Shown here: piece after piece, positions 38,128 through 63,738 of the stretch
Position numbering within the stretch: the stretch's first letter is position 1
Layout: each line of letters starts with the position of its first letter
The notes under the pieces: generated by a model
Told to the model about the DNA's origin: nothing
Databases searched by the model: none
Seen by the model: the letters and a program-made list of their open reading frames with translations, nothing else
Program-made: the position numbers and the translations under genes
Assembly (NCBI RefSeq): GCF_964355755.1
Contig: NC_092672.1
Location: forward strand, 17,001,237 to 17,065,236
DNA length: 64,000 bases
DNA from: Antedon mediterranea
Lineage: Eukaryota; Animalia; Echinodermata
Direction: 5' to 3'

Positions 38128-39702
38128 ATGGATCATTGCGATATGGACATGTTTTTAGAAAACCTATTAGCGTTCGATTCAACAGACGACGACATATTAA
38201 AGACGGCAATGTTGGAATTGCAAGACCCGGTCGAACCAGTTTTCATGGAGTACCAACAAGAAGATGATATAGCATCAGAACAACAACCACACCCATCACC
38301 ACCACCACCGACGCCGCAAGAATCAACAAAGGCAAACACGATGATAAATGTTCGAGGCAGTCTCGGTAAACTAATTGCTTTCTGCGATGGATCTGAACAT
38401 ACACTAACGCAATCATACGGTCGAATGATCGGATCTTTGCAAAAGGCAAAAGGACGCATGCACGAGATGCCAATGTTATTGATGTGTACGGACGGTGAAG
38501 AAGAGTACGCGGTTGTTGCAAGTGTTCTGGAATCATCGCGACTTGTCGAATCTACAATTGAAAATCAAGTCATGAGTGTACTTGGAGAAAACAATAGGAA
38601 AACAATAATGCAGCAATACGGTAGGGACAACGTGTTTATGAACGTTTCTTCACGAAATAAAAACTGTGTTGCTGACTTTGTCGGCGCCGATGTATCGACG
38701 ATGCCCGTGCCGATTTTTGACATAATAAATGGCGACGTGAAACGTATTTGTTTCTATATGGCACTCGGCTGTCTCTACAGTCCACAATGCGATGATGATG
38801 TTGCGTCGTCGTCGTCGTCGTCGTCGCCGCCGATGAATGGCGTTCAACTTAGAACTCCAAATGGAGTTGTCTATACGGCCGCCATCATGCCGATAACTGT
38901 AAAACGACGCATGCGACTAGAGTTGACTCTGGATAACGAATTGGACAACGGTAAACTGGAAGAGTTGCAAATTACGGTGACCAACAACAACCGTATATTG
39001 TTATTGCATAAACAAGAAAAAAGAACCTATCACTGCGGTGCGGACATGAAGTATCCCATAACTTTGCACGGTGCCTTTTCCACACCGTGCGCATCGGAGA
39101 AAAAGAATGGTGTTGCCACCGCCATTGCGAATATTGCCAAAACCAATTCAATCAACAAAACACTATTTGCTAGATTTGTTGGACGAGCGATGGAATCACA
39201 TGCAAGCAGTGATTGGACTGCCATAATAAACATTCTTCAGATATCAGATCAAATGACGAAATTAAAAGAAAAATGTGAGTACAAACGAAAACGAATCTTA
39301 AAAGATTCTCTAATAGACAAGTATCCTTCAACAAGAGGTTTTGTTAGTGATGTAAATAATTTACCCTCATCTAACATTGGCATTCAACAACTGATAAGCC
39401 AATTGGAGCAGGCACGCCAAGATTTACGCGAAACAGAGACCAAATTGAGTACTTTACAAACACAATTCAATAACATGTTGATAGAATTCCAAAATCACAT
39501 CACCAAATCGGAAGAAAGAGAAATCAAATATCAACAAGTAATAGAAAATATGCAAAAACGAGAAACCGATATGGTTTCTACGTTTAAAGACAGTTTGCTT
39601 TCGATGGCCGATACTTTGCGTGATGAGATGCGCCAACAACTGACAAAACGAAAGCGTCTTCCTCAATGCGGCAATATTAAGAAAAAACAACGAATCCATT
39701 GA
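38128..39702 (+). CDS. Orphan 524-aa probable nuclear protein (acidic N-terminus, C-terminal coiled coil, basic NLS)
   Basis: Long intronless ORF with first ATG at 38128. It has an acidic/Pro-rich N-terminus, a heptad-like segment QQLISQLEQARQDLRETETKLSTLQ and a C-terminal KRKR...KKKQR. Confidence 0.85.
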   Translation: MDHCDMDMFLENLLAFDSTDDDILKTAMLELQDPVEPVFMEYQQEDDIASEQQPHPSPPPPTPQESTKANTMINVRGSLGKLIAFCDGSEHTLTQSYGRMIGSLQKAKGRMHEMPMLLMCTDGEEEYAVVASVLESSRLVESTIENQVMSVLGENNRKTIMQQYGRDNVFMNVSSRNKNCVADFVGADVSTMPVPIFDIINGDVKRICFYMALGCLYSPQCDDDVASSSSSSSPPMNGVQLRTPNGVVYTAAIMPITVKRRMRLELTLDNELDNGKLEELQITVTNNNRILLLHKQEKRTYHCGADMKYPITLHGAFSTPCASEKKNGVATAIANIAKTNSINKTLFARFVGRAMESHASSDWTAIINILQISDQMTKLKEKCEYKRKRILKDSLIDKYPSTRGFVSDVNNLPSSNIGIQQLISQLEQARQDLRETETKLSTLQTQFNNMLIEFQNHITKSEEREIKYQQVIENMQKRETDMVSTFKDSLLSMADTLRDEMRQQLTKRKRLPQCGNIKKKQRIH

Positions 39703-41050
39703 CTTTAAAAAAAAACAAACATTGTTGTTGTTTTTGTAGTAATTTTGTTGTTGTTAGTAATTTTTTATTGTACAAATCAATGCCGTAATTGTAGTAGTAG
39801 TAATAGTAGTAGTGATAATAATAATAATTAAACGTTTCATTATTTCTATTTATAATTTATTGTACAAATCAATGCAATTTTAACGTTGCGTCTACCTCAA
39901 TATAATAGTAACAACGAATTCATTAAGAAAACTAAAAATTGTAGTGTAGTAATAATCAATTCAATGCCGCAATAAACATTGTAGTAATAGTAGTGATAAT
40001 ACAATTAAACGTTTGAAAGAAAAAAAAAATATTGTGTTTTTTCTCTCTTCCAACGCGATGAAGACGACGACGACAGAATTTTATGTGATTGTGAGAATGT
40101 TGATGAAGAAATAAAGAGAGAGAGAGAGAGACATGGATACGGTTTGCTTAGACACCCATGGATATTGACACCGTCAGTCCAGTCAAAAAATCACCCTCAC
40201 CATGGTATAAGAACGTACCCTAATAAAATTTCATCCGTAGGTTCTATGTATATAGGTAATAACATTTCTTGATGGTTGCGTCTTGCAAAACTTGGGATTT
40301 TACGAGAAAATTAGACTTTTTATACCCAATTTATAACCGCCTCATGTCGTATTATTGTGTACAGCAAATGCGACGAAGCGTGACTGAAATTACGAGACGC
40401 CGTTAGCGCCCGTTGAAAAATGCATTAACAAAGCTAAAAACGTACAAAATTAATAGTTTATACAAAAATTTAAATATAGTTTACAATAAATTGTATAATA
40501 AAATACATAACATTATAAACAAAACCCAATTATAAACTAAAATATTTACAGATATGTGTTTAAAAATGTACAAATCAAAATGGCCTTTCATAGAATAAAG
40601 TGCGCCCTCACGCGTCATACTTTTATCGGACTTGTATGAATGATTATATATATACAAGGCATTAATATACGAAACCCGATGCGGTTTTTGTCATACTTTT
40701 ATCGGACTTGTATGGCCGGATGGTTACACAGTACACGGCATTAATATACGAAACCCGATGCGGTTTGTTAGTTATTGCCTCTGCAAGAGGCAGAATATTA
40801 TTATTATATTTTCACAAATGTATTTATATTTTTTATCATGGAAAAACGGATTGTATATATTTAAACACATTACAACCTCCAGTATACCATCATGATGGAT
40901 TAAGTGTATATTTGTATATCTGCTGAAGCGTAATGATAGATAGTTCCGCTGGTTTTATTTTGGACATTCTTTTTTTTCCACAGCATTAGGCCTACTTGCG
41001 TGAATATCACAATGCATTGCATATTTTGAACTATCATTCGCGATTATAAT
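39541..41050 (+). repeat. ~1.4-kb direct repeat, copy 2
   Basis: Matches 32273..33680. Confidence 0.88.
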
Positions 41051-42763: not shown

Positions 42764-43150
42764 ATGATTCTAGAAGTCAAAACTATCACTATCACTTTGT
42801 TGACAATCGTATGCATAACGTTGCTACTTGTCTACGTGTCCCGTGGAAGAAATAGCGCATGCAACGAACGGTTGTGTGGCATCAGTGGACGAATGGAGTA
42901 CGATGGTGTATCGAAATATTGCGTGTGTGTAGGCGATGGCGTCTCCGGAGCCGTGTGCAAACAATCGATTCCTAAAACAACAGTAAACTGCACGACGTGT
43001 ACAGCGCATAATGGCCGATGTGTATACTCTGACGCCGCAGACGGTAACTATTGCGTGTGTCCCAACGATCGTTTCGGATTCTCGTGTGAGTATCGGTACG
43101 TCGGTGGTGTATCGGCAGCGATGTTAGCGTACGTTCAGGCTTGTCTCTAA
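42764..43150 (+). CDS. Membrane-anchored or secreted protein with two EGF-like domains
   Basis: N-terminal hydrophobic helix followed by C...C...YCVC.....G..C and C..C....G.C.........YCVCP..RFG..CE, i.e. EGF-type cysteine spacing. Confidence 0.8.
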   Translation: MILEVKTITITLLTIVCITLLLVYVSRGRNSACNERLCGISGRMEYDGVSKYCVCVGDGVSGAVCKQSIPKTTVNCTTCTAHNGRCVYSDAADGNYCVCPNDRFGFSCEYRYVGGVSAAMLAYVQACL

Positions 43151-43191
43151 AAAAAAAAAAAAAAAAAACCACCGCACACACGCACTACACT

Positions 43192-43887
43192 ATGGGCATT
43201 AAACTGGCCTTGTTCGAATGCGCTTATCGATGGTTGCCCATTCAACCGTATTTCTACATATCTATCATACTTTTCATAACGTTCAGTCTCATCAGTTATG
43301 TCATCGTAGCGTCCAGAGCCATCGTCGGCAACGTATGTAAAGTATTGTCCGCTGTAACGAAACAAGTGGAGCGAATCATCATCAGTCAAGCCAAGAAGAA
43401 AAGTTTACGCGTGTACATGCATCAATTCCAGGCTCTGTGGCACACCATCGACGGATGCGAAGCTTTTCAAACTTGGTATCAAGTCGTACGTTACGGATTT
43501 CACAGAACGATGGGATACGTTTTCTGTGACAAAATGCGATGGTTTTACTCGATAACGTTCACTCGTTATCTTGTCTATTATCCAATGAATCTACTCGTAT
43601 GGCAACCGACGCACGGTGACTGCTCCGTCAGTTATCAGGACGATATCTGCTTTGCCTTTCATCTAAATCTAATCTTGGACGTGATTCGGCGATATCTTAT
43701 CATATCCGTCGTGGTTTTGTACAATACTTGGCCTCTCGTCTCTCATTATATGGCCACATTAAAACGCATCTTTAGAACTTTGCATCGAGAAATGTGCTAT
43801 CAGTTGCACAGACTTGATCCCGGCGGTCATTCTTTGACGCGCGGACGCTTTGCAAAACGAATCAAACATTTTTTTCACTTTGATTGA
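43192..43887 (+). CDS. Orphan membrane protein (231 aa)
   Basis: First ATG at 43192 (MGIKLAL); at least two hydrophobic segments; 3' end overlaps the convergent gene by 13 bp. Confidence 0.72.
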   Translation: MGIKLALFECAYRWLPIQPYFYISIILFITFSLISYVIVASRAIVGNVCKVLSAVTKQVERIIISQAKKKSLRVYMHQFQALWHTIDGCEAFQTWYQVVRYGFHRTMGYVFCDKMRWFYSITFTRYLVYYPMNLLVWQPTHGDCSVSYQDDICFAFHLNLILDVIRRYLIISVVVLYNTWPLVSHYMATLKRIFRTLHREMCYQLHRLDPGGHSLTRGRFAKRIKHFFHFD

Positions 43888-44750
43888 TGAAATGAATGAT
43901 CTTCGGCCAGAGCACTTTCAGCCACTTTGCGGTTATGCACGTGCATTCTGGCTCCAGCGCATATTGCGTAGACAGACACGATCGCTACTAAAAACGCTGT
44001 ACAACAGGTAATCAATTCTAGTGTACAATCACAGTCGTCTTCGTGTACAGTACTGGAGCAGCCTAACGACATCCATCGGTCCCAGTCCAATAGTTTGGTG
44101 GCGTTTCTGATGAGTTCCAGTCGAACACACTCTACACGCTCGACGAGCGTAGATCTAGACACTGTCATCGAGCCATACAGTCGATTCAACACAACAGAGC
44201 CACCGACGATCGAGTTTAAACTCACGTTGTGTACCCGCAACGTTTCTTCAGACAACAGCGGTGATACGTGAACGAGTATGGGCGGTGGCGCTGAATCGAT
44301 ATTCATTACATCATCATCATCACCACCACCACCACCACCACCGTGTACACCGAGACGCTCCAATGTAACGTTGTACACGCGTCCGACTCCTGTGAGACGC
44401 AGCGCAGACGACGAACGCGACCAGTTGTTGCATTTAAACGAAAAGTCTTGTACGTGAACGTGATCACCGATCAAAAACGACGTGCAATCATTCGCTGTCA
44501 CTATGATGCCTTTACCGCACAACGGTCGCACAGTCACGTTCGATACAAACACTTCATCATAACTAATACTCTCGAGACTAGAGGAAATGCACGAGGAAAC
44601 GTTTAACGCGTCGTCTGGAATAACAACGTACGTATCGTGTGCATCGTTTCTATAATTTATGTCTTTCAGGTAACCAACCTGCGACGACGTACATAATGAC
44701 TTGTTTGCAATAAACAGAAATAGAATCAGAATTATTTGTTTTTTATTCAT
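43875..44750 (-). CDS. Orphan type I membrane glycoprotein (291 aa)
   Basis: Signal peptide MNKKQIILILFLFIA, several N-x-S/T sequons, a beta-rich ectodomain, C-terminal TM (LITCCTAFLVAIVSVYAICAGA) and a short tail. Its ATG overlaps the upstream gene's stop (ATGA). Confidence 0.8.
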   Translation of the reverse strand: MNKKQIILILFLFIANKSLCTSSQVGYLKDINYRNDAHDTYVVIPDDALNVSSCISSSLESISYDEVFVSNVTVRPLCGKGIIVTANDCTSFLIGDHVHVQDFSFKCNNWSRSSSALRLTGVGRVYNVTLERLGVHGGGGGGGDDDDVMNIDSAPPPILVHVSPLLSEETLRVHNVSLNSIVGGSVVLNRLYGSMTVSRSTLVERVECVRLELIRNATKLLDWDRWMSLGCSSTVHEDDCDCTLELITCCTAFLVAIVSVYAICAGARMHVHNRKVAESALAEDHSFHQSK

Positions 44751-45598
44751 TTCGTTTCTATAACAAATTTAAAGTCGTCGACTGCAGCCAGTTCGTCTTC
44801 GCTAAAATTACAATTTCTCAACACTAACGTCACATGCTCCTTGTCAAACACACTTGACAATTGTATCGGAGATACGTCCATACATTCGATACACACCGTC
44901 ATCGGATAAGCGCTCGGCCGCATATCATTACCAAACGTCAGCCTGTTGCACCTTACAAGTCGAACGTCTTTCAAACCTCCTCCTCCTCCTCCTCCTCCTG
45001 CACCTCCTACATTTGTCATCAACGTAGATAAAAAACTGTCGACGATCGGCACATCTATCAAAGTTAAACGTTGCAGAGATTGTATGCAGAGTACACTTTC
45101 AGCAAACGTTCTTCCCATCGTGGCACGTTGTCGTTCGCGTATTGCCGCGATCAAAATCTCGTCTGGATCGTGCTCGACTGCTTCACTCACAAAACGTACA
45201 ATAGACCGCAAATCCATTTTCTGATCCTCTACGTTGTTGTGCATACGTTGCAAAATCTGAGCAATACACTTGCGTCTTCGACTCGCGCAAGTGCATTCGT
45301 TACAATATTTCCTGTCAATACGTACTACAGTCACGACGCATTTCTGACACGAAGACACCTTGCAATTTGCGCATCTATACATCATTTTACATGTATCGCA
45401 TGCTTTTGCGCCGCAGTGTATACAATTCTGTAGCAAGAATCGAGTGCACTTTCGACAACGATCCGTTTTCTCATCACCGTATATCAAGTCGTTCCAAACT
45501 TTTGAAATATTCGACGTACACAGTCGGCGTGTCGGATCATCTTTTAGACAATCGCGTATACTCAGGCATACCTCTAACGGTACCTTGATCATTGTCAT
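44747..45598 (-). CDS. F-box protein with CxxC-rich zinc-binding region and degenerate LRR-like C-terminus
   Basis: VPLEVCLSIRDCL...LCTSNISKVWNDLI fits the F-box consensus; six CxxC pairs; LQRLTL...LKDVRLVRCNRLT resembles LRRs. First ATG at 45598. Confidence 0.7.
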   Translation of the reverse strand: MTMIKVPLEVCLSIRDCLKDDPTRRLCTSNISKVWNDLIYGDEKTDRCRKCTRFLLQNCIHCGAKACDTCKMMYRCANCKVSSCQKCVVTVVRIDRKYCNECTCASRRRKCIAQILQRMHNNVEDQKMDLRSIVRFVSEAVEHDPDEILIAAIRERQRATMGRTFAESVLCIQSLQRLTLIDVPIVDSFLSTLMTNVGGAGGGGGGGGLKDVRLVRCNRLTFGNDMRPSAYPMTVCIECMDVSPIQLSSVFDKEHVTLVLRNCNFSEDELAAVDDFKFVIETK

Positions 45599-45817
45599 GT
45601 CGCGTGGACGCGTTGAAAACACGTTTATAACATCAACACAACGATATCATCATCATCATCATCACTTTTACGCACACATTAAAAAAACAAACAACAAATT
45701 AACGTTTCGATTCTTTATTATCATCATCTCAGAAACAAAAATTTAATGCTAGTACGTACTGCGCATATATAAACGAAATAAATTCATAAGATTTTTTTAT
45801 TTATTTATTTTTTTTTT

Positions 45818-46744
45818 TCAAATCTCAATATCCCATAGAATGTTCAACAGTGCTTCACTGCAGTCTCTGAAATAATAACTCAAATGATCATGTTCTGCAC
45901 TGGCCATTTTCATATCTAAGCACACGTCATAACAATCTCGGACGTCTTCGTAACTGTTTGCTGCCAACAATTTGTGTTTAAGCATACAAATGTCCGTTCT
46001 GATAGCGCTGTAGCCGCCGTCGTAAGCTTCTCTCTCTACTGATACTGACTGAGCATTGTAACTGACGAGGGCATTCTGAATAAAGTTCATCAAGTCTCCC
46101 ACGTACATTGACTGTCGAAGACTTATCACTTCTCCAAACGTTGATGCCTTGTTGTACTCTGGATACTGATACACGCCTAAACATATGTTGAGCAACGTGT
46201 CCAATTCGTAGCCTACCAAACCAAACATTTTTGTATCGTTCGGGAACATCGATCGTGCTTCCTGCAACAGTCGCACACATCTCGTCAACTTTGACAACGA
46301 GTTGCAATTGTTCAGCTTAGCGTGAAGATTGTTCACGTACACGTACAAATCTGACATTATCGGTAACGGTTGAGTATACGGGTAGTTGTAGTCGATATTG
46401 CAGTACTTGAACGCAGTTGATAGCCAATTTCGTATATCTTCTTTACTCATTTTCTTTCGTTCATCAATTTTTCTATGAAACATATCTTCGAAATTATCTA
46501 TAGGATATTGGACGGAATAACTATCGATTATAACGTTCCTGTTCTTCATGATCGGGTCGTAGTCGTCGAGTATACGCATGCTATCTTCACATCGCATTTC
46601 TAGTCTACGCGACGTCGGATTTATGTTCCACTGAAGCATTATACGCTCTTTTGCATCGCCGTACGTAAGTGCATGGTCTTCGATGTACCACGTTGAATCG
46701 TTGTTAAATCTGTAAGCAAATCTATGGTCATCGTTTGACATCAT
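45818..46744 (-). CDS. Protein with an N-terminal DWNN (RBBP6-type ubiquitin-like) domain and an orphan helical C-terminus
   Basis: YRF...LTYGDAKERIM...LEMRCEDS...DDYDPIMKNRNVII parallels RBBP6 DWNN as recalled (YKF...ISLCDLKKQIM...LQITNAQT...DDNALIPKNSSVIV). No zinc knuckle or RING follows. Confidence 0.68.
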   Translation of the reverse strand: MMSNDDHRFAYRFNNDSTWYIEDHALTYGDAKERIMLQWNINPTSRRLEMRCEDSMRILDDYDPIMKNRNVIIDSYSVQYPIDNFEDMFHRKIDERKKMSKEDIRNWLSTAFKYCNIDYNYPYTQPLPIMSDLYVYVNNLHAKLNNCNSLSKLTRCVRLLQEARSMFPNDTKMFGLVGYELDTLLNICLGVYQYPEYNKASTFGEVISLRQSMYVGDLMNFIQNALVSYNAQSVSVEREAYDGGYSAIRTDICMLKHKLLAANSYEDVRDCYDVCLDMKMASAEHDHLSYYFRDCSEALLNILWDIEI

Positions 46745-46847
46745 CGTGAATGAAAATGAAAATATGGAATCGTAATCAGTTCCTTTTAACCATTAACAAG
46801 ACACATACAGAGAGAGAGAGAGAGAGAGAGACACGCACAGCGCGACG

Positions 46848-47885
46848 ATGACAAAGGCTCTCAACTTCAACACCGATTGGTTTATTGTAGGCAACGAGAA
46901 TGCGACGGGTGGTGTTGGTGAAACACTACGAGATGAATTTAATAATACCGATTGGACGAGTTGGAAGGTGATGAAGACGGATGATGAAGCAGCAGCAGCA
47001 GCAGCAGCAACACGTCTACCCGTTCTACAACATTCAAAATCAAATAAACGAATACAGCTTAACAAAATGACGGTACAAGGCAGACGATTACTCCAACCGC
47101 ACGTACATCCCAATCAATGGATATTAATAGATGTTGACACTTTGATATGTTACCACGATGAAGACAGAACGACGTTTCTCACTACACATCGTTTACCTGC
47201 AAGCGCGTACACGCAGCTGTCGTGTAACAATCCTGATCGGATACGCTTCGGTCATGCATCGATCGCGGCCCGGAAATGCTGGAAACAAAACACAAAGATT
47301 CCGTACGCGGCTATCCCGATTCGATACATGGATCGCGACACCACGTTCGATATACGCGATGCGAGTACACTCTTCTACAAGGTTCTCTTGACCGACAGTC
47401 CACAATACAAATCTCCAGAATCGTATTACAGAGCGTTGGTGCAACGTGATAAACAGCCACCGTGGACTGTCGAAGTCAGACAATACATACTGAACATACC
47501 GCTTCCTCCTCCCGCGCCAGATATCGAATACTTCGAAGCCATCATGCGCTCAGTTGATTTCAGAACGAGCGTTAGAAACAAACGATTACCGTTACAATCC
47601 GGTGAATCGGCCTCTTTTTTGCGCGCCGAGCCCATTGTAATAGATAAACACGGTGACAAGTTTGCTCTTCGACCGGCCGACGTCATGACGCCCACCGCAT
47701 ATCGTGAATTCTACTCACAAGTTGGATGGACTAACGCGCACGACTTTGAAAAATGTATACAGTCCGTTTACAGATTCATGCATTGTCCCGTTGTCAGAAG
47801 AAATCTGTCGAACGGAGAAGTTGAATTCACGATTCTCATTCCTCTGCCGCCGCCTTCTCCTCGTTCTCCCTCCTCTGTGTCATGA
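46848..47885 (+). CDS. Orphan 345-aa protein
   Basis: Long intronless ORF with an ATG after a (GA)n tract, 103 bp from the divergent gene; no family recognised. Confidence 0.8.
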   Translation: MTKALNFNTDWFIVGNENATGGVGETLRDEFNNTDWTSWKVMKTDDEAAAAAAATRLPVLQHSKSNKRIQLNKMTVQGRRLLQPHVHPNQWILIDVDTLICYHDEDRTTFLTTHRLPASAYTQLSCNNPDRIRFGHASIAARKCWKQNTKIPYAAIPIRYMDRDTTFDIRDASTLFYKVLLTDSPQYKSPESYYRALVQRDKQPPWTVEVRQYILNIPLPPPAPDIEYFEAIMRSVDFRTSVRNKRLPLQSGESASFLRAEPIVIDKHGDKFALRPADVMTPTAYREFYSQVGWTNAHDFEKCIQSVYRFMHCPVVRRNLSNGEVEFTILIPLPPPSPRSPSSVS

Positions 47886-47939
47886 TGATGAGCACATGAA
47901 CGTATTTCGCGCACGAAACGACACAGCAGCACAGAGACG

Positions 47940-48965
47940 ATGAAAGAGTACACTGTTTGTTCGTTGATCACAACATGTTTCGCTACGTCTATTGTAATCG
48001 ACGTACTGTTACAGACAAACGTTCATCCGATAATCGATTGGCACGCCATCTTTCTACCCGTTTGCCTCTACGCCATATTCGTACACGCTGCATCGACAAC
48101 AAAACTCATATCGGCGTTTCGATTGAGCATGTGCGCGGCTGCAAACATATCGTTTCTGTCCAATATGAAATTTCTGATCGGACCGTGCGGTGTATCCTAT
48201 CGAGATCCGATGCAAGAGTGCGGTGCTCACGGAACTGATGCACGTTGTCATCGCGCCATGACGGACGCTCTTCGATGGCAAGCCGATCAACGACGTTGTC
48301 CCATGGTAGAGTTGGGGACAGCTGCCGGTTCCATTTACTACACTGTACAAATGTTGCTTGTCTATCTGCCCACCGGTATTCTGCCGGTAATGCTACACAT
48401 AACCGATCGTTCAAAAGGAAATCAAGTTCTAGACTGCTGGACGTGGTACATGTTCGTTGGACTGCCTATAGTCGTTGCCACGCTACTGGTGGACGTTCTA
48501 GCCGGAGCCGTTGTATATCCACTTTGTTCTGAGCACGTAGTGTACGCGTTCCTGTCTGCCGCCATGATGTCCAGATACTCATCGTTGGAACGCATATGGG
48601 AGGCGGTTTCATTGACGTCGGTGGCTATGACAATCCTGGATCTGATACGCAACGTTTTTATCTATAAACTCGGTCCATGTATGTTTGACGGTCGTGAACT
48701 GTTCAAATGTGATGAGCTCGATAGCTGCTATCAGAATCTACTCGATTTGAGCGCACACAAACTAGATTCATCAGACTGTCCGATCAACAAAGTAGGTCGA
48801 CACTGGGCATTCGCTCTCATGATTTCGCATCTGATCAGATTCTTCACCATAGTCTTTATTCAATGCTTTATGCTGATGCATAAACGTCATTTTCTGAGAA
48901 AAGGCGATGCCGATGGAGAGGAGGATGATGAAGATGTTCTGTTCACTAAAGAACGGAAAGTTTGA
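47940..48965 (+). CDS. Orphan multi-pass membrane protein (341 aa)
   Basis: About 6-8 hydrophobic segments with Cys-containing loops and an acidic C-tail. Confidence 0.8.
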   Translation: MKEYTVCSLITTCFATSIVIDVLLQTNVHPIIDWHAIFLPVCLYAIFVHAASTTKLISAFRLSMCAAANISFLSNMKFLIGPCGVSYRDPMQECGAHGTDARCHRAMTDALRWQADQRRCPMVELGTAAGSIYYTVQMLLVYLPTGILPVMLHITDRSKGNQVLDCWTWYMFVGLPIVVATLLVDVLAGAVVYPLCSEHVVYAFLSAAMMSRYSSLERIWEAVSLTSVAMTILDLIRNVFIYKLGPCMFDGRELFKCDELDSCYQNLLDLSAHKLDSSDCPINKVGRHWAFALMISHLIRFFTIVFIQCFMLMHKRHFLRKGDADGEEDDEDVLFTKERKV

Positions 48966-49488
48966 TGATACGACAAAGGCAAATACAAAAAAAAAAATGT
49001 CTTTACATTGCGTGTTTTTTTTTTGTTTCTATTTGGGTCGCGTCACCACGAAAGGAGCTTTGTGTCGCAAAAGCTATATTGCTATAATTAGCTGACGCTT
49101 TAAATGCTGGCCTTCTTGCTATTGCTGACGATACGGCCCTGTTCATCGACTAGCTAGGCTTACATACATTCAGGATTTTTTTTTTTTTACTCGGTGAGGG
49201 GCTGAAGAAAATGGGGTAAGTGAAAATGAGGATGAGGATACTAAAGACTGGATGGGAGATAGACGAAGATTCTGACGGCGAGGATAGTTATTGAAAACGA
49301 AGAAGAATGTGTAAGAATTTGTATAGGCCTAATCATGATCTAAGAGTAGAAGTGAGTTATGTTAACAGATTGTGTGCTCAAAATAATCCATTAATCAACA
49401 TAATTATGCAATTTTTAATGGTTGATTTTATATATGAAGATGATAATAAAATTGAAAGAAATTAAAGTGTAATCTTTATTCGTATTCA

Positions 49489-49930
49489 TTTATTTTCATT
49501 TCATTTATTCCACATTTATTTAGTCATCAACTACAGTACATCATAATTACAGTACAACTGAGAACAGGGATCCTGCATAAAAAAGCTATAGCTTCGTTTT
49601 TTTGTAGGACCCTTTTACATAAGAACAAGTATATAGAACTTAAATAAACAAAGGTGTTGTTAATCAGCATATAGTGATAAAAAGTATTTTTTAACCTGTT
49701 TTTTTATACATTTATTTTGTTTCTTTAAGATAACCGGTTTATTACCACCATTACAAGTGAATTCTTTCCACAATTTTGGTCCATATATGTGTATAAACTG
49801 TTGACTGCAAGTTAGTCTTGTGAAGGGAATTTCGAATTCAGTTTCTGTTCTGAGGTTATGAGTAGGCCTAATACTGTCACAGTAATTAAGAATATTTAAA
49901 ATGTGATGTGGTAATTCATTGAATTCATTG
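49489..49930 (-). mobile_element. 3' remnant of a CR1/L2-like LINE
   Basis: Minus strand encodes YGPKLW (conserved ORF2 C-terminal motif), followed by a 3' stem-loop and a (GAAAT/AAAT)n tail; it interrupts the repeat shared with 41672..41967. Confidence 0.7.
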
Positions 49931-50293
49931 TTTAAGTGTGTAAAATTTAATGTAGATCCATTAATAATGACTAATGGTATTCAAGGCGAATGTGTTGTGG
50001 ATATTGAATAGAACCAAAGTACCGGTAATTGTCCACTGAACTTCAAAGGCTGTTTTTTAATTGTTGATAATCTATTGAATTCGGAAGTAATCTATTGAAT
50101 TCGGGTCGTATCTTAATTGCCTTGAAAGAAATTATAATTTCAACACAAGGCTCCGTTTGTTATGACACGAGCCATTTATTCTTCAGCCTTTGAATCAAAT
50201 TACATGTATTATTATTATTATATATTTTTTTTAAAAAGTATGAAGATTAAAAGTTATCGTTAATGTACAGCGTCGAGTGCACATGCGTGCGTG

Positions 50294-50866
50294 ATGTTGA
50301 AGCTAAGAGGATTGATTTTCGACGTATTTATTGTTTTATTCGTTGTAAGTGTTCCATGGAATTGGTTATTATTGTACAGAGAGAGAGTGGCGGTTAATCG
50401 GGCCGAGATGACACAGCTTGTCAACAAATGTGAAAAGCAACAGAGACGAATCACAGAGAATGCTGATACGATGAATGTGTTTGTGTCGTGGTTGCGAACA
50501 AATATCTTTATAGAAGAAAGAGACGAATGTACCGAATATCACAGAAACTATGTAGTACATCCGATCCTGTCCGTTTCGCCGGTTGAAGCGTTTGCCAAGA
50601 CCGTTTCTAGCTTGATAGAAATTCCTGCTCGGGCACTTGGAAAGGCAATGTCTGACTTTAACTTGAATTTCATAGGCAGAATTCCAATTTCAATCTGGAT
50701 TCCTGCCCTATTAACATGGTCTTCTATGCTCATAGCTACAGTTACGTTCGTCTATTTACTCTGTCTAAAGTACAGTCGTCCAAACACCGTATTCGTTACT
50801 GCACTGTCCACGAAGAAATGTTGGTCGTCGCGAAACGGTAAACATCGGTTAAAAGTACACTCGTAA
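50294..50866 (+). CDS. CLCC1: CLCC1/MCLC-like (chloride channel CLIC-like 1) membrane protein, intronless, core domain only (190 aa)
   Basis: FVVSVPWNWLLLY...C...SWLR...DECTEYH...VHPILSVSPVEAFAKTVSSLIEIPARALGKAMSDF...IPISIWIP matches the CLCC1 core as recalled (SxPWNWxxLY; DxCxxYY..LLVxPxxxVPPxxA; EPLKHxGxxxxEF). Confidence 0.85.
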   Translation: MLKLRGLIFDVFIVLFVVSVPWNWLLLYRERVAVNRAEMTQLVNKCEKQQRRITENADTMNVFVSWLRTNIFIEERDECTEYHRNYVVHPILSVSPVEAFAKTVSSLIEIPARALGKAMSDFNLNFIGRIPISIWIPALLTWSSMLIATVTFVYLLCLKYSRPNTVFVTALSTKKCWSSRNGKHRLKVHS

Positions 50867-51288
50867 AGCTTTGTCACTCTGAAACGTTGAATACTTTTCA
50901 CACCACACCCACCACTATCAAGAAGTGTTTTGTGTATACACACACACGATATTAAAGTCTAATTTTTTTTTATAAACTATTATTTTACCATGCACAAATA
51001 ATATAGTATTCTCTGGATAATAAGTTCTCGAGCCGTGAAGAAACGGTACAAATATGTAATGCTCGCTTTCTACACTATACCGTTTCGATTTTATCAAGAA
51101 GCGAACAATATTATTTGTATACACACACTCACACACACGTACACAAGATAGTAAACTTGTTTACTCTTCTGACTTTTTGTGTGATTGCGCCCTCTGTATA
51201 TTTTTTATTATTTACCCATACACAAATGATTTTCACGGCTCCCATGATAATGAACAAGTCAGGCACCCTCAGTGTAAGCAGATAACGT

Positions 51289-52090
51289 CAAAGAATATTA
51301 TATCACAAGAATGAGAAATCCGTGATTTTCCATGTAACAGTAATTTGTCCATGTGGTAGGGGGCCGCCATAAGTGAGGATGTATCTGGGATGTATACAAC
51401 TTTTCATGATAAAAAAATGTTATCAACTAGATGCCAACATTATGTTAAATGCTATTTGGATATTTAATTGTTCGTTTTATGCAATTTATTTAGTAAAAAC
51501 TGCCGTATAAACAGTTTGCTTTATCAACCGGGCGCTACGATAGCGTGACCGGGCGTGTTGGTGTTTACGCGTTTTCACGAAGGATAGTTTAATAATATTC
51601 CTATATTTAACTTGTTTCTGGTAAAACAAATACATGTTAATGACATTTAACATTTTATCCTATTAATAACATGTATTTTATACTAATTTGTATCATAAAA
51701 ACAATACTTAATTTACCGGGCGTAGAGTACTACGCGGCAATGATAAGAATAGACCGTGCTGAGTAAGGATTCGTTGATTTTTGGTGTTGCTGTGTTAGGC
51801 CTTTTTTTGTGAACGAATTTAGCATGTTAGTAAATAATTGTCTGTAAATAAAGTGAATGTACACTAGTTTTTTTAATAAATATGTATTATAAAATATATT
51901 ACAATTGCAAAATATATTATCATAATTCTATTTAATGTGACATGTATAATACGGTATCTATTAAATCAAGTCTTATTTAGTATGTATACATCCCCCCTTA
52001 TGAGGGCGGACATCACTCTCTGGAGCTCTCTGTTACAAATATCTCATGAAAAAATCGCGGAATACTCATTCTTGTGATATATATTCTTTG
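51289..52090. mobile_element. Non-autonomous DNA transposon (P-element-like MITE), ~45-bp TIRs, 7-bp TSD ATAACGT
   Basis: Left end CAAAGAATATTATATCACAAGAATGAG, right end CTCATTCTTGTGATATATATTCTTTG; ATAACGT at 51282-51288 and 52091-52097. Confidence 0.85.
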
Positions 52091-53047
52091 ATAACGTTTA
52101 CTGAACCGCGCGGAAGATTTTTTCGAGCGGGCGGTATCAAACAATCATTTATTTAATGTGTTTTCAATAGTTAAAAGATAACACTTATTTTATGTAAAAT
52201 ATTATTACGCCCTTAATGTATTACTTTTTAGCTATATCTATTTTAAAATGTAATATTGATTATAACGTGGAATACATTTGCACTTTGGTGCAATTGTATT
52301 CGACAATTAAAGTTTATATGTAACCGGTTTTCTGTGCATGTCTTCGAATAGAGTTTTTATCCGCATTCAGTAGTCGTCCTAAATTCTGCACACAGGATGA
52401 CAGAGCCATGAACACACACACACACGCACGCGCACACGCACCCACACACAAGAAATGAATAAATAAAAAGAAACAAACGTGATGTAACTTTTTAAATTTT
52501 TTTATTTGTTAAAACGATTTCCGAGTTAACGACATTTAAATTCATAAACAATAAATACAGTACAATAATATATTGAAATTCTATCAATAAATAAAACATT
52601 AAACAAACTGAAATTTCAGTCAACCGTGATGCTGTATGTACATAACAATATGCACCACTAGCAGCAGATATTACAAAAGTATGGATTCACGTACAACGAA
52701 CTAGGTTAACATCCACAAACAAATATATTATACATATGTATATTTTTCCTGCTTTATAACTAACCATTTCTGCTTTGTACCCCAAAGCGTTTGGAAGTGT
52801 GCCTTTATAACTATGCCTTTTCATATTTGATGATTTTCTTCACCTGATGATCGGCTATGCCCGAAACATAAACTTATATATTGAGGCAGTTTTAACTGAT
52901 TTGATCTTGATTTTTTTTTTCTATGTCCTGCCTATGATTTAGGTCTATAGGCCTATATATATTTAGTTAAAAATTTATACTTGTACAACTAATGATGAAA
53001 GGTATTATTTAATTAAACCAACAAAAGACAAATTATTGACAATGAAA

Positions 53048-55594
53048 CTATTTTCTTTTCAATACGCGCATGACAGTACCACTAGAAAAAACCGTTATAT
53101 CAAAAATGTTATTTTTGAATGGTAGAGTTGTCTCCACCATTCCTAAATTTTCGCTGCAGATAGTAAATACGTCATTGACGTAATCTTCAAAGAATAGATT
53201 TTGGAACACAATAACGCGTTTGCATCTATTCAAATACCTCATTATGGTTTGTTTGTCTTTTGTTGGCTTCATTCTGATATACGTGAAGCCATTCCATTTT
53301 AATATATCTGCTACTTTTGCCGTGTCACTGTTATGTACAGCAGAGCACGACGAAGCTATCAGGTAGTCTATATTGCTGTTGTTGTCGTTTTCGGAATCAA
53401 AGGCGTACGTTTCCTTAAAAGGCAGAAGTGTGCTTTGCCTGTGAAAGAAAACATGACGTAAATAAAAAATAATGATTTTCGGGTTTTTGGGGAGCATTTT
53501 CCTGCATGAACAAGAATAATAGTTGGTGAACCTACCATGAAAACACGCCTCTGGTTCGTTGAGGGCGTTTACAACGACCCGTCGAATGTAACGGTTGTTG
53601 CTGTGTTGATTCTATATGAAATCAAATATATATAATATTATATTATAACAATCATATGAGCAGCGTTAAATAGTATCGTTCGCCAACAATGCATTTACTT
53701 TAATTTACCTTTGTCCACGGTTTCTTCTTCTTTCGGGTTGAACGGGTGCTCTTCCGAGGGAACTCTTACGAATGTACTATGAATAAATTATATATATGTA
53801 TATATGAATCGAATAAATAAACAAAAATGTAATGTCAAGAGAAGAAAAAATACTTACGGCATTATTGGTATTCTTGTTACTGAAATTATAAAAAAAAAAA
53901 GAAGAAAAACTGGTTTTATTATACAACTAATAGTACGTGGTGCTGGTGCTAGTTTGCAACCAATTAAAACATATACAAGGCTTCTCGGAGAAGGATTTAC
54001 TACTGGATGTGTTCAGGGTACACATCTGATTCGTGCCCTCTTTGAATATTTATTTATGCCAATGAGCATCAAGTTTTTCAGTATGAATCATATCTATCTA
54101 AATATCTATATTATAAGTAAGAGACAAACAAACAAACAGACAGACGTACAAACTCTCTCACTTATAATATAGATATATAACGTTAGTATTGTATTTACCT
54201 TTAACACTATCTTTCCATTGTGAAACATTCTGAACTGATGTTCGTTGTACTAAAACCAAATTTAAAAAAAAAAAAAAAGTTGACAAACCACAATCATTGT
54301 CATTATGCGCTGCATAACACGGTAAAAAGGGTTACTAATTGGATACATGCAAACAAGCTATCACTAAATATGCTAAAAAACAATTTTATGTTGTTTAGTA
54401 ACAAATAATATAGTATGTTACCAAAAGATATTATTTTCAACAATGTTCCTATTAATCAAATAACCAACACAAAATTTCTTGGTATATTTATTGACGACAG
54501 ACTTGACTGGAAAGCCCATGTTAATTACCTTTGCAAATTATTATCAAAAAAAATGTTGGCATGATGTATAAATTGAAATCAATATTTCCTCAAAAAGTAT
54601 TAAATATTTTATATTCTACTCTTATTTTATCGTACTTAAATTATGGTGTTCTTGCTTGGGGAAATGCTTCAAAATCAATTATTACTAAAATTTTATTAAT
54701 CCAGAAACGAGCTGTCAGAATTATCTCAGGGGTAATTTTTCGTGCTCACACCCAAGATCTCTTTCAAAAAAAAAATAAAATATTAAAAATTGAGGATCTC
54801 TATAGATTTAATGTTGGTGTCATCATGTTTCAATTAACCGCCCGACACCTATAATATCCAGTAAATTCACTTAAAATAAACAATACCACACTCACCAAAC
54901 AAGACAAAAAGATTAGTATCACCTGCCATTTACTCGAACTAAAATGAATACCCTTGTATACACTGGACCTAAACTCTGGAATTCTCTTCCTTTATCTCTT
55001 AAAAAAATCTCATAACTGTGCTTTATTTAAACGTCAATTTAAACTATTATTGGTTGAAGGTTCTTTGTAAATTCTTTTATTATTGATGTATTTGATATTT
55101 CTTAAATAATTTATATAATCTATTTTTTACTTGTTTTTTTTTTTAGTTTTAAACATGTTAAACTTATGTGTTAGAGAAAAGATATTAGTTTAATTGTTGT
55201 TATTTTTTTTTTGGAGTTTCTAATTGTGTTATAATATTATTTCTATTTTATTTGTTTTGTTTTGAGGAGCCTATTCACAACAAGCTTTGCTTTCTTTTAG
55301 GCTCCTCCACTTTATATTTATATATTTGTAAAGTGAAATAAATAAATGAAATGAAATGAAAAGATATATTACAATATTCTTGATAATATCGAATCATGCC
55401 CTTGTAAAACTATGGTAACATTATTTCTTCTTGATAAAACAAAAACAACAAAACTAGTGACACTATAGAAATAATATTACGTTGCTAAATCAAACAATAC
55501 ACATTTATGAATTACCTTCAACATCGTCAGTCCACCACGGAGTCATCCACATTGTATGTTCTTGCACTTTACACTTAGCTGTTTGCTGAGACAT
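53048..55594 (-). CDS. Six-exon orphan gene, 228 aa: complement(join(53048..53438,53536..53611,53709..53776,53858..53879,54199..54249,55516..55594))
   Basis: All five introns are GT..AG with pyrimidine-rich acceptors. Exon lengths 79+51+22+68+76+391=687 nt splice in phase from ATG to stop with no internal stop (MSQQTAKCKVQEHTMWMTPWW...SWQSTLLPFKETYAFD...RVLKRK). Confidence 0.78.
54104..54174. repeat. 71-bp hairpin/mini-MITE in intron 2
   Basis: ATCTATATTATAAGT...ACTTATAATATAGAT inverted arms around an (ACAA/ACAG)n core. Confidence 0.65.
54320..55361 (+). mobile_element. Decayed 5'-truncated CR1/L2-like LINE inside intron 1 of the six-exon gene
   Basis: Frameshifted RT C-terminus (WIHANKLSLN, KFLGIFID, LYSTLILSYLNYGVLAWG, QKRAVRII, GPKLWN), 3' hairpin GAGGAGCCT..AGGCTCCTC and (GAAAT)n tail. 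Confidence 0.88.
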
Positions 55595-55607
55595 TATTAG
55601 TTAGTAT

Positions 55608-55688
55608 ATACTGCTTCACTGAAATGTGTGTAGGATACTGCTTCACTGAAGTGTGTGTAGGATACTGCTTCACTGAAGTGTGTGTAGG
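55608..55688. repeat. 3 x 27-bp tandem repeat with palindrome CTTCAcTGAAG in a divergent promoter gap
   Basis: ATACTGCTTCACTGAAGTGTGTGTAGG x3. Confidence 0.9.
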
Positions 55689-55901
55689 CTATATATACTG
55701 CTAGCAAAGTGAATTATGTGTGTATACAATTGAATCGTTGGCATTGAACGTTTCTAAATAAAAGACTTCCTTGCGAATTGAAAAGACGATGACCTTCAAA
55801 AGTTTATGCATAATTAATAGGCATGAGTATTATCTCCTGGTAAGTTGTACACTGTCTAATCGATGTCCACCTTGGAAAATATCAACGTATGTGATTGTGA
55901 A

Positions 55902-55908
55902 TATATAA
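55902..55908 (+). promoter_or_regulatory. Putative TATA box of the helicase gene
   Basis: TATATAA ~55 bp upstream of ATG 55962. Confidence 0.45.
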
Positions 55909-55961
55909 GAGGCAAGATTGTGTATTTTTAATGTTTAGTTAAAGTCGCGCGGTTGTTGAAA

Positions 55962-58900
55962 ATGAGTAAATCTGAGAGTACAGCCGATGATCTACTGCCA
56001 TGTGAATTATGGCCGGGCAGTCGAATTACGGACGATATTGTGTTTGGTGAACCCATGCACATCATGTGCGTCGAGTTGAAATCGTTTGAAATACCGACAA
56101 ACTCGCTGCGCAATTGCTCCCCGCATACGTACATAATGATGATGGTGTTGTTGAGAAAAGCGTTACAGTTGCACTGCAACGATGAACAGCACGCACTGGT
56201 GTGCTCTCTTATTGAACCTAGTCGCATCGTGGATGAAACGGTTCGGGGTAAGGTGTCGTGCGGTTACGTGTTCTGGTTGATCTTCCCACGACGTTTGCAC
56301 AAAATGTTACAGTACGTTGTCAAGTCCATACTGTTGATAAACAACGGATACCTGCCAGCATGGGACACAACATTCTTGACAGACGTCCGATGCGAAATGT
56401 TTTCCGACAACGATCTTGATGATGATGATGATGATGATGACGACGATGATGATGATAATGAACCGAAACGTAAAAAGACAAAACGTAAACGAAACGATTC
56501 AGCAACGGCGACAATAAAATATGCATTTAAACATTTCGATTGCCGATTGGGTCGTGGAACGTCGCAAATGAAACGAACCAAGATAAATAGCTATGTTCCA
56601 CACGTGACAGTGCTCGGGGATTTTGAAAGAAGCATTGAAAAATATTTCTGTTTAGACATACCGAAAATCGAAGGCAATCGATTGCCCCCGACTGTTAGAG
56701 AACAAGATACAGCAGAGGCGTGGCAAAAGCGCGCAGATCTGTTTACACCAAAGACTCTTTTTTCGTCATCTAGACGTGCAACTCATCGACGTGAGCTGAC
56801 ACGTTTGATTGCAAATGAATCGAGTAATGCGCTAACTCTCGATCAGTTGATGACAATTGCCGACAAAGAATTGAATCTACCTCCGACTCTTAAACTGTCT
56901 TTGCAACAGATTGATCCGAGAGTTATAATGAACGAAGGCGATAGTCGTTGTGTAAGCTTCCAACATATGAAAGCGTGGATATTGGAACCTCACATGTACG
57001 AGGCGAATTATTTTTTGAAAAGACACTTTCCTGCACTTGAAAGTGATACGAACATTGGTAATACAAAATTGTTTGTTCACGCTATGCGCGATGATGCAGC
57101 GCAATTGGACGAAGACAAAATTTCGGCAATCGGAAAACTGTATGTAACCAACCAGAATCAGAACGAAGTGACCATAGACTCGAGGTACGTATTTTATAAT
57201 CATCATCATCATCATCATCATCATCACCACAACACAAATTGTAGTGTGCGTGTTTTACTTTTGATTTATAATTGTTTTCGTTTTGTTTTTTGTTTTTTTT
57301 TTTTTTCTTAATAGGCATTTATACGGTGAAAAATACACGGCAAAGAATCCGGGCATAGTGATGATGAGAAAGATTTTTCACAATTTGCAATTGACTCCGG
57401 AAAGATACCGTGACAAGACTGTCGGCAAAATTTTCTTTGACATGTACACGCAAGTGCATATGGGAAGACACGTGCAAATGAGCGAAGTAATAACGCAATC
57501 GTATGCCGATATGTGGGATACCGAGATGAAGGGTTGGTGTATGAACGCGTCTAGACACAGTGACGGCAGTTTTGTTCCATTCGTATACGAAGAGGAAACT
57601 GACGTGAAAATATCGATAGGTTATCGATATCTTTTGAACATGGTGGCTCTGATAGGTAATGTGGCCGGTGTGTCTAACGCTAAAGGTGAACTTTTGTACA
57701 TTTTACTGTCGGCTATACGTATCGTATGCCCACACGATGCGATGGCCATGCACGCCATTCTGGTTGGACCTCCCGGTACGGGTAAAACGTCTGTGATGGT
57801 AGCCGCTAAATCTGTAATCGGTAACGCTTACTCAGACGACGTTACTTACCGAACACAGAAAGCCGTGCTCGTCGATAATGAGCGAAAGTACAAAAATTCA
57901 AAAAAAATACGCTTCATGAACGAATTTGTGCCACCGTCGTCTGGATCTAAAAGCGATAAGAATCCGTTGTCAATTGAAAGCAGTCAAGAAGCGGCAATAA
58001 TGAAAGAGGAACTCGATTCCGGCTGTACGCGCACCGAACGAACCGAGAAGGTAACGGATCCGAACACGGGAACCACTCGACACGGTGTTCGAACCGTAAT
58101 CAACGTTTGCGATAATGCCACCATAATGGCCATGAACGAAAAAAACTTGTGTAACTCGTTAAACGAACGAGTTGTCACTTTTGACGTGGCACCCAGTGGT
58201 GTTGTCAACGTGCCCAAGAAAATGGAGGGATACGAGAAGGAATTGGATCGTTTAAAAATTCGAACGCAATTCGGCGCTCTGCGCCACAAAGTAATGGAAC
58301 ATGTACGGTTGGCAGAGTGCGGTCTGTATCCACGTCGATCGGAAGGAGATTCGTACAAAGACGATCGTATGCTACTGTTGACTTGCGATAGAATATCTGT
58401 CGAATTGGAAAGGCAAGGAGTCCGATTCGGATTCGCCACAGAAACTAGAACCATCAATAAACTCATCGACCTGGCACGTTTGTGCGCCTTTCACAATGCA
58501 GTGATTCAAGTGAACGGCTGTCCGTTACAAAGTCTGCACGCCAATACACCTCGATTACCGAACGAGAACACTTGTTGTCTCAATTCAAGAATCATAGCCA
58601 AACATCAACGGTGGCTGATGCAACAGGACATGAAGCGACTACACGACATGGTAATGTCCGAGGCGCAGCCGGATCCTGCTGATATTTTGTTTGCATTTTC
58701 GTTAATGTGTCCGATGCCACAGAACGAACTGATAATCGTGAGAACGATAGCGGATCAGTTGATTGATCCTTCTCATGATCCCGTTCATCGAGATGGTGAA
58801 ACTTACTTTGAATTGACGTGCAGGAGCGAAGAGGCGCTTCTGTCCATTTTAGAGCGCAAAACGGGTGTTGCTCGCAAACAATGTAAGGAAATATTGTTGG

Positions 58901-60321
58901 CTATGCACAGTGGACGGAGTAAGTTGTTTCGAAAAATGGACGATAACGGACAAAAACAGCTTCTGTTCAAATGTAGCGAGGCAACGGAAGCTCATCTTTC
59001 GTCACATGCAAACGAGTACCGTGAAATATCGGACGTGATGATGGCAGGAATGTGCAATGCAAAACAGTACAGGGGAAAACATTACATATACGTTATGCTC
59101 AATGGAAAACTTACACAAGCCGCACGCTTCTTGTCTCATTTGCCCGTCTTCGCTCGACATATGTACTGGGGCCAGTCAAACTCTCAAGATCCCAAATCCA
59201 GCATCAATTATCTAGGATCGGTGCCGAAAAAGTTTACCAACGAAGAAAGATACTGGATAAAAATAAATTTAGATTTTCACGAGACCCGACTGGCGTACGT
59301 TAGGAAACTCGCAATCCAATCGTGTGTGACTGGAGACTGCGACGAAAACGGATCAATTGCGGTCGGTGTTGACGTGAAAGAGATTGCCGACAGTTTAAGG
59401 GTGTTGAAATGCAGATCATATGACGGTAGCAGAGATAGACTACCGATGCCACCGCCGGTGATGAACAACGATCACACGTGCAGATTGGTATTGGAAACGT
59501 CGAACGCTCGAGCCTTTATGGTACACGTTAGCGTCTTTTTGCCACAACATAGACGTTTGAAAAAAATACTCGAATTGTGCACAAAGGTTGTGCTCGAAGA
59601 TAAAAACGCGTGCCGAGGTAATCGAATACGCGTTCTGGTAAATGACGAGTTCGAGGCGGATGAGCTGAGAAACGGTGTGAATTTGCTAACAAACGACTTG
59701 AGACACTTGATCAATTCTTCTTCGATCATCTCGGAAACACCACCACCGAACGTATTCTTTCACGTAAATCTGTTGACGTTGAATTCATTGGAAGACGCGT
59801 GTAAGCATTACAAAGTGAAAGCCGGCGAATCAATGATCAAGAGTGTATTGGAAAAGTGCGTGTTTAAAAATATGACTGAACGTAAAACCATCATGTACGT
59901 GGATCGTAGTACAAGAGATGTGTTTCAGACGTTAGACATTCAGCAATTGGCCGAAAAGAACGGCGGTAGTCTACCGGTACACAAGTGTAAAAATCCGTAT
60001 CTGACACAAACGCTTCGAAATCCAACAACCGAGGTAGTAGATCGTGATAGATTAAGATTCAAGTTAGAAGAACCGCAATTTCTTGAAGCCGAACCGTCGC
60101 ACGTTCAACGACGAAAAGCATGGATTAGAATGTTGTCCGATGGTACGGAGATTAAACTGAGAGAACGATTTGGACACGACGTGGACACTTATTTACGCCA
60201 CATAAGACTCGTAGAAGATGCAATTATAGAAAAGGACAAACTGCACGCATTCAGACCACTGGTTTACAAGACTGGTGAAAAGAAACTTTCACCGTGTACG
60301 TGCTCAAAACAAACGTTATGA
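55962..60321 (+). CDS. Large spliced MCM-like AAA+ ATPase/helicase, join(55962..57184,57315..60321), 1409 aa
   Basis: A 130-bp GTACGT...TTCTTAATAG intron joins the two long ORFs in frame (IDSR|HLYGEK). Motifs: Walker A ILVGPPGTGKT, Walker B IRFMNEF, AIMKEELDSG, sensor-1 TIMAMN, Arg finger SLNER, sensor-2-like ETRTINKLIDLA, in MCM order; NLS PKRKKTKRKR. Confidence 0.85.
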
Positions 60322-60679: not shown

Positions 60680-60955
60680 GCCGCGCTGTTATCATGATGG
60701 TCTACCTGAATGCTTAACAATGAAGCGCGCTGATTATCATGATGGTCTTCCTGAATGCTTAACAATGAAGCGCGCTGTTATCATGATGGTCTACCTGAAT
60801 GCTTAACAATGAAGCGCGCTGATTATCATGATGGTCTTCCTGAATGCTTAACAATGAAGCGCGCTGTTATCATGATGGTCTACCTGAATGCTTAACAATG
60901 AAGCGCGCTGTTATCATGATGGTCTACCTGAATGCTTAACAATGAAGCGCGCTGT
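60680..60955. repeat. 44/45-bp minisatellite, ~5 copies plus partial
   Basis: GCGCGCTG(A)TTATCATGATGGTCT(A/T)CCTGAATGCTTAACAATGAA repeated. Confidence 0.93.
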
Positions 60956-61035
60956 TGTTATCATTGACTTGAAGTTATATTTTCATTTAAAAAAACAAAC
61001 GAAAAAAAAAAAAAACATTCCTCTAAGAAAATGAT

Positions 61036-63707: not shown

Positions 63708-63738
<31 letters not shown>

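Follow-up and report, generated by a model that had tools for sequence, protein, structure and literature searches.

Can a virus outside the herpesviruses have taken the membrane protein CLCC1 from its host, kept only its core and used it to leave the nucleus? This question is raised by a short ORF in a stretch of crinoid DNA of 64,000 nt, which we call the window. Fusion of the outer nuclear membrane, in herpesvirus egress as in pore insertion, was long an open problem to which CLCC1 has been tied only recently, and viral capture of CLCC1 has been published for three herpesvirus lineages. The first-pass annotation of the window had proposed a compact, intronless CLCC1 homologue reduced to its TM-lumenal-TM core, and had gone on to suggest that the element carrying it builds capsids in the nucleus and buds through the nuclear envelope. 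The identification of the gene is upheld by the analysis reported here, the second proposal only in part. The reading we favor, tentatively and at somewhat less than an even chance, is that of a likely virus-derived element that would perform nuclear-egress fusion by means of a bare CLCC1 core captured from an echinoderm host.

A minimal CLCC1 gene and its predicted protein

The ORF at 50294–50866 (+ strand) encodes 190 aa from an ATG start, uninterrupted by any stop or intron, and was annotated as a minimal CLCC1 (MCLC / MFH-domain) gene on the basis of the ORF call, Pfam, AF2, Foldseek and the tree. It matches the Pfam family MCLC (PF05934) with an E value of 2.9e-16 and 59.8 bits against a gathering cut-off of 25, residues 11–154 being aligned to positions 214–349 of the 549 in the profile. 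Residues 239–380 of the host-type CLCC1 P0003 (637 aa) match the window in a single unbroken HSP (E 2e-31), and the N-terminal part of P0003 with TM1 has no tblastn match anywhere in the 64-kb window. Together with the two TM segments and the fully retained conserved columns described below, this bears out the claimed reduction to the core. There is an in-frame stop at 50261, 33 nt upstream of the ATG, and both close relatives, P0001 and P0002, have their starting Met at the same alignment column, so the start codon is very likely real. Judged by the alignment, the protein begins at what is TM2 of host CLCC1; the signal peptide, lumenal N-terminal domain, TM1 and long tail of full-length cellular CLCC1 are absent. 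P0001 and P0002 are ENA proteins of 193 and 197 aa (59% and 51% identity), and the next-closest relative is the 637-aa CLCC1 of the crinoid Anneissia japonica (XP_033109258.1), with 39% identity over the core. Three truncated database proteins stop just past the conserved SP motif, which may mean that host genes have an intron there; the window ORF reads through this place. A putative TATA-like box 75 nt before the ATG (50219–50224, +) is a motif match in AT-rich DNA; a polyA-like ATTAAA, likewise a motif match, lies 3' of the ORF at about 50951.

The protein has two hydrophobic segments, at about residues 2–20 and 139–157. The first TM (50297–50365, +), equivalent to host TM2, is by hydropathy and conservation a predicted signal anchor of presumed topology, with basic residues in front and conserved S19, W22 and W24. 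According to conservation and AF2, it is followed by a lumenal knuckle (50429–50539, +) with a predicted C46–C79 disulfide, an amphipathic helix at residues 59–71 that includes F63 and W66 (F72 comes just after), and D77-x-C79-x-x-Y82. The same two kinds of evidence define a proline-flanked amphipathic helix, residues 96–129, in which P96, P111 and G116 are conserved (50579–50680, +). The last TM (residues 132–160) and a short, basic, low-confidence tail (50687–50863, +) were assigned from AF2 and composition, the last 35 residues of the protein holding 8 K/R and no D/E. In the AF2 model, which was computed from a 135-sequence alignment and has a mean pLDDT of 85.2, helices span residues 2–55, 59–71, 78–87, 96–129 and 132–160 and the predicted order is TM, disulfide knuckle, amphipathic helix, TM. 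In the predicted arrangement the two TMs form a hairpin, its ends facing the cytoplasm or nucleoplasm and its disulfide knuckle projecting into the lumen of the ER or perinuclear space; the basic character of both ends would fit this.

Of 154 CLCC1 homologues, 143 entered the core alignment, 11 being left out for short coverage. Twenty columns are conserved in at least 70% of these cores and the window protein keeps 20 of 20, among them S19, C46, D77, C79, Y82 and four prolines. By their spacing, the five named residues appear to correspond to human S224, C254, D277, C279 and Y282. The accessible text of PMC12639132 reports that human CLCC1 mutants at S224, C254, D277 and C279 did not rescue HSV-1 egress and that the point mutant D277R is dominant negative. 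A Foldseek search of the model against viral structures gave only three matches at E≤0.001, including OsHV-1 ORF57 at 2.6e-5, with identities of 20–24% (20% for ORF57); against the PDB there were none at that threshold. A four-copy complex prediction of the protein scored 0.06 with a predictor that did not use the alignment.

Origin of the short gene

The IQ-TREE phylogeny was computed from 50 of the 143 aligned rows, hand-picked to span a first tree, with neither a named malacoherpesvirus CLCC1 nor the CLCC1 of this genome itself among them. In this tree the window protein forms a clade with P0001 and P0002 (support 100/99), and the clade of short proteins groups with Anneissia and Holothuria (98/94) and, further out, with Acanthaster (96/90); its exact sister is unsure, since Holothuria is a long branch. 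IcHV-1 ORF16A and AngHV-1 ORF112 lie inside the vertebrate clade with named bony-fish CLCC1s. A forced union of the three short proteins with these two was rejected by the AU test (p=2.45e-7), the grouping having been chosen after the free tree was seen. The comparison with host and alloherpesvirus CLCC1s that had been suggested at the outset therefore came out on the side of capture from a host, with the short gene nested in an echinoderm clade, and against descent from the alloherpesvirus copies. On this evidence the short CLCC1 is likely a capture from an echinoderm host, separate from the alloherpesvirus copies.

The stem of the short clade measures 0.75 and its tip 0.64 changes per site, which argues against a recent retrocopy; the capture appears to be old. 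A host retrogene or processed pseudogene, situated by chance amid repeats and unrelated ORFs, would also be intronless and nest inside echinoderm CLCC1. We regard this explanation as very improbable and largely refuted, given that the gene is only 39% identical to crinoid CLCC1 and has the long stem and tip just mentioned, that the same new start occurs in three divergent proteins, that its CpG content is like that of its neighbors and that it is joined to ATPase sequence in other organisms (see below). The low identity to the nearest host protein and the long stem speak against the recent host retrocopy that the first-pass annotation had named as a refutation of its reading.

Additional CLCC1 forms of 230–294 aa (P0020, P0051, P0078, P0128, P0117, P0131 and P0106) occur in clades of their own and may be further viral captures; the five that were looked up are ENA, Logan or JGI records on contigs of 1–19 kb. 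In sequencing run X9 a second contig, of 1051 nt, matches 50 nt of the CLCC1 ORF (50558–50607) with 8 differences and possibly represents a second short-CLCC1 family.

The element around the gene

Positions 1–32274 of the window (~32 kb) consist of a 19-bp-based satellite, broken by a LINE reverse-transcriptase ORF (2882–4483, − strand; Pfam RVT_1, 108.8 bits), and the junction between satellite and element at 32274 is abrupt. The leftmost element gene seen is a 524-aa ORF with an acidic N-terminus and a TATA-like box (38128–39702, +). Seven intronless ORFs, including two overlapping pairs, fill 42764–48965 at 93% coding; this block holds a TM protein with two EGF-like Cys repeats (42764–43150), a two-TM protein (43192–43887), a Cys-rich protein with a C-terminal TM (43875–44750) and a multi-TM protein (47940–48965). 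On the opposite side of CLCC1, a 149-aa ORF (53048–53497, −), which may or may not belong to the element, lies in a region of high summed depth. The CpG observed/expected ratio is 1.22–1.65 in 12 of 12 element ORFs, with CLCC1 at 1.30, and 0.57 in the LINE ORF, the sole host comparator. A 1.1-kb duplicate (32273–33386 versus 39541–40655, 99.6% identical) of the last part of the 524-aa ORF, together with the flank 3' of it, adjoins the satellite. Internal repeats of 2 kb come next, and the duplicate resembles a neighboring copy that has been truncated.

None of the element ORFs other than CLCC1 rose above a family cut-off in Pfam, PHROGs or NCBIfam, and an Atlas search with a 231-aa ORF gave no usable match. 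Capsid, portal, terminase, polymerase and integrase families were all without a match (14 ORFs in Pfam, 13 proteins in PHROGs and NCBIfam, 22 of 74 stop-to-stop frames), negatives that are to be read with the high divergence of the element ORFs in mind and with the window perhaps containing only part of the element. The UL31/UL34 nuclear egress complex had no match in the window either; according to the accessible text of PMC12639132, it has no known homologues outside Orthoherpesviridae.

A large replicative-type ATPase gene (55962–60321, +), which encodes a Walker A and has its motifs in an MCM-like order, is split into two ORFs, 55962–57311 and 57361–60321, both of which match the same single proteins of 1375 and 1479 aa. 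From the sequence and the homology on both sides, a GT-AG intron with a polypyrimidine tract is predicted inside it at 57185–57314 (+). Such a spliceosomal intron would imply transcription in the host nucleus, and a nuclear phase of the carrier is supported by this prediction together with the TATA-like boxes. Of the earlier proposal of nuclear capsids and budding through the envelope, it is the nuclear part that gains support; the search for capsid, terminase, portal and polymerase families offered none for the remainder.

A winged helix occupies residues 445–551 of the second ATPase ORF, with many winged-helix rows at Z 7–8. A search of 5.8 billion clusters yielded 2 relatives of the ATPase, and an iterated search gave the same 2 proteins. 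Atlas pointed to plasmid and prokaryotic-virus Rep/helicase clusters (PF27228) at 0.88, which is a lead only, and hhalign against 7 Rep/helicase proteins gave 80% and a score of 48.5 versus at most 21.7 in 30 shuffles (local mode), a signal that disappears once the Walker A region is removed. The motif order resembles that of the pME2001/pMTBMA4-type Rep. The structure model of the ATPase is poor (pLDDT 34); Foldseek with it found no match among viral structures at E≤0.001, and the top row, an eel herpesvirus ORF with a TM-score of 0.07, was rejected as noise. A tblastn search of the ATPase core against phages returned 2 records at E 0.7–0.8. Neither a UL5-type SF1 helicase nor a family-B DNA polymerase was seen in the window, where the AAA+/winged-helix gene is the only helicase-like one. 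As far as the accessible text of PMC4889955 goes, all three herpesvirus families have the UL5-type SF1 helicase, AAA+ plus winged helix is a viral replicative helicase layout, and the survey, made in 2016, found no SF6 helicase in eukaryotic viruses. The ATPase could, by its motifs, be a rare eukaryotic-virus SF6 helicase.

Directly after the ATPase gene there is a 44-bp repeat in 6.2 copies (60682–60956), which one might guess to be a candidate origin or iteron array. From there, repeats of ~0.9–1 kb continue to the end of the window, and the whole of 60682–64000, with a CpG ratio of 1.46, is possibly a terminal or origin region of the element.

These features bear on a different explanation, namely that of a capsid-less giant mobile element or plasmid-like replicon that is run by the AAA+/winged-helix protein and carries CLCC1 as cargo for persistence or movement, for example in germ cells. 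The plasmid and prokaryotic-virus Rep/helicases as nearest leads of the ATPase, the repeat array behind it, the rearranged versions in related organisms and the failure to detect a virion gene in the window all accord with such a replicon. However, no transposase or recombinase was found in the window either, the hhalign signal is lost without Walker A, and there are an EGF-like-repeat TM protein and Cys-rich membrane proteins among the neighbors. Proteins of these two kinds are typically encoded by enveloped animal viruses. We consider a capsid-less replicon distinctly unlikely.

The stretch or part of it was present in 12 sequencing runs from 7 studies, representing four organisms coded A–D. 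In B as in C, contigs cover the CLCC1 gene; those of B also take in the left-hand neighbors, at similar summed depth, and one contig of B runs across the whole ORF without an indel. Eight substitutions were observed in the ORF in organisms B–D (5 synonymous and 3 non-synonymous), too few to show selection. A contig of organism C joins the CLCC1 3' flank to the interior of the ATPase gene, and the joint 52540–56804 is present in both B and C. The gene is therefore not unlinked from the rest of the element, an outcome that the first-pass annotation had named as refuting; the link runs through the 3' flank, and no one contig extends from the ORF proper to the ATPase. A contig of 980 nt in organism C runs out of the sequence 3' of CLCC1 into the inside of the ATPase gene and then comes back to its own start (window 50955–56993), which suggests a tandemly repeated unit of element pieces. 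In organism A, run X1 has a depth of 1.9 in the CLCC1 bin versus about 92 for the genes to the left and run X3 has no cover of the ORF, both of which are possible filter artefacts. Summed depths, such as 1458 over the CLCC1 ORF in X9, suggest many copies, this figure not being itself a copy number. Neither viral contigs, scanned with both ORFs (ATPase and CLCC1) and both of their alignments, nor metagenome contigs, scanned with the two alignments, yielded a related locus.

An insertion at 51281–52097 is MITE-like, with short terminal inverted repeats and an 8-bp direct repeat, and is skipped in contigs of organisms B and C. Two further insertions (49483–49923 and 54327–55386), of which the second resembles by eye a decayed LINE 3' end, are skipped in contigs of organism B. 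That these insertions are skipped elsewhere indicates a resident, endogenous copy in the chromosome. The alternative that free virus or symbiont sequence was mis-assembled into the chromosome could account for the abrupt junction to the 32-kb satellite and the high summed depth in some runs, but not readily for a MITE-like element with its target-site repeat and the other two insertions that contigs of other organisms skip; we rate it very improbable, marginally more so than the host retrogene, and the two together take up only a very small share of the probability. With its virus-like genes, its place in a host chromosome and its host insertions, the block is likely an endogenous viral element; neither its ends nor a mechanism of integration was found.

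Proposed role and relation to known systems

Under the favored reading of egress by a captured core, a large nuclear DNA virus, now integrated in the crinoid genome, would have acquired the CLCC1 core from an echinoderm host in the distant past. The 190-aa protein would insert in the ER and nuclear envelope, where, by analogy with published CLCC1 models, ring oligomers would bend the outer nuclear membrane and the knuckle helix would grip the opposing membrane. CLCC1 has been modeled as fusing the outer nuclear membrane with an opposing one (PMC12639132, in its accessible text), and the domain common to CLCC1 and Brl1/Brr6 (human residues 204–378) is predicted to form rings alone (PMC13061601, likewise). 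Enveloped particles would then fuse out of the perinuclear space, the opposing membrane being that of the budded particle; this capsid-budding step is the weakest, as no virion gene was detected in the ORFs and frames searched. The three separate herpesvirus captures of CLCC1 provide a functional precedent, and an unclassified virus may by analogy use the same nuclear exit as the herpesviruses.

The accessible text of PMC13061601 also assigns CLCC1 roles in nuclear-pore insertion and ER lipid flux, so the presence of the gene alone does not specify egress. The same core in the same carrier might instead join or poison the rings of host CLCC1 that serve pore insertion and ER lipid flow, or reshape the ER or inner nuclear membrane for envelopes without herpes-type budding and de-envelopment. 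Loss of TM1 and of the lumenal N-terminal dimerization domain (PMC13061601, accessible text) could equally make the protein a decoy, D277R of human CLCC1 is an example of a dominant negative, several neighbors encode membrane proteins and no herpes hallmark gene was seen in the window. Yet all mapped egress residues are kept across three proteins that are only 53–57% identical, as expected for an active fusion domain, and a CLCC1–Brl1 core swap partly rescues envelope herniations (again the accessible text of PMC13061601). Such another job for the protein is, on balance, unlikely, though a serious competitor to egress.

The novelty lies in a probable echinoderm donor, in the reduction to the bare core and in a carrier that is unclassified. 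In a search confined for the most part to papers outside subscription, PMC12373286 and PMC11097642 among them, the literature on CLCC1 egress and gene transfer and on endogenous large viruses of crinoids, feather stars and echinoderms held no report of the element; the mirusvirus and Ariadnavirales papers likewise held no link to it. The 897 cellular homologues listed in the supplements of PMC12639132 could include short echinoderm forms. The element is an unclassified large one in Echinodermata, a phylum for which we found no comparable report. A natural two-TM core, kept in three divergent copies, offers a direct test of whether the core suffices for fusion, and a capture by way of echinoderms, independent of the alloherpesviruses, adds weight to the view that CLCC1 activity is a recurrent need of nuclear DNA viruses. 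A still more specific proposal, which we think rather improbable, is that feather stars harbor large nuclear DNA viruses of an undescribed lineage, not part of Herpesvirales, which have an MCM-like helicase and an independently captured CLCC1 cut to the smallest fusion unit. If it is true, envelope-crossing nuclear egress would be convergent beyond the herpesviruses and the 190-aa protein would be a natural minimal lumenal fusogen.

Among known systems, the SF6 (MCM-like) and SF3 (D5-like) helicases of viruses and plasmids have an AAA+ Walker A followed by a winged helix, as does the window ATPase (PMC4889955, accessible text). The latter, however, has about 1400 aa, N- and C-terminal parts without a family and an intron, and its SF6 assignment is a lead only. 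In lancelets, which are invertebrate deuterostomes too, the integrated element BelcheriHV-1 also forms a large viral block, dense in genes and flanked by repeat-rich sequence. Matches to malacoherpesviruses account for 27 of its 62 ORFs, whereas here CLCC1 is the only element ORF that passed a family cut-off; the main text on the lancelet malacoherpes-like genomes (PMC12373286) makes no mention of CLCC1.

The CLCC1s of Allo- and Malacoherpesviridae (IcHV-1 ORF16A, AngHV-1 ORF112 and OsHV-1 ORF57) are, like the window protein, host-derived and shortened with the TM2–fist–amphipathic helix–TM3 core intact, and both share the conserved Cys pair and prolines. The herpesviral proteins have 278–334 aa and are described as keeping TM1 (PMC12639132, accessible text), whereas the window protein has 190 aa and starts at TM2; its S..W.W motif is at residue 19, compared with 98 in AngHV-1 and 150 in IcHV-1. 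The carriers differ as well, the window having no herpes hallmark gene and its CLCC1 falling in a separate clade with an echinoderm donor. The MFH domain of yeast Brl1/Brr6, with TM, disulfide knuckle, amphipathic helix and TM, has about the span of the window protein (PMC13061601, accessible text); the latter has one Cys pair and the extra CLCC1 knuckle helix, and the two are likened by layout and not by sequence similarity. With cellular CLCC1, as represented by that of Anneissia japonica, the window protein has all 20 conserved columns in common.
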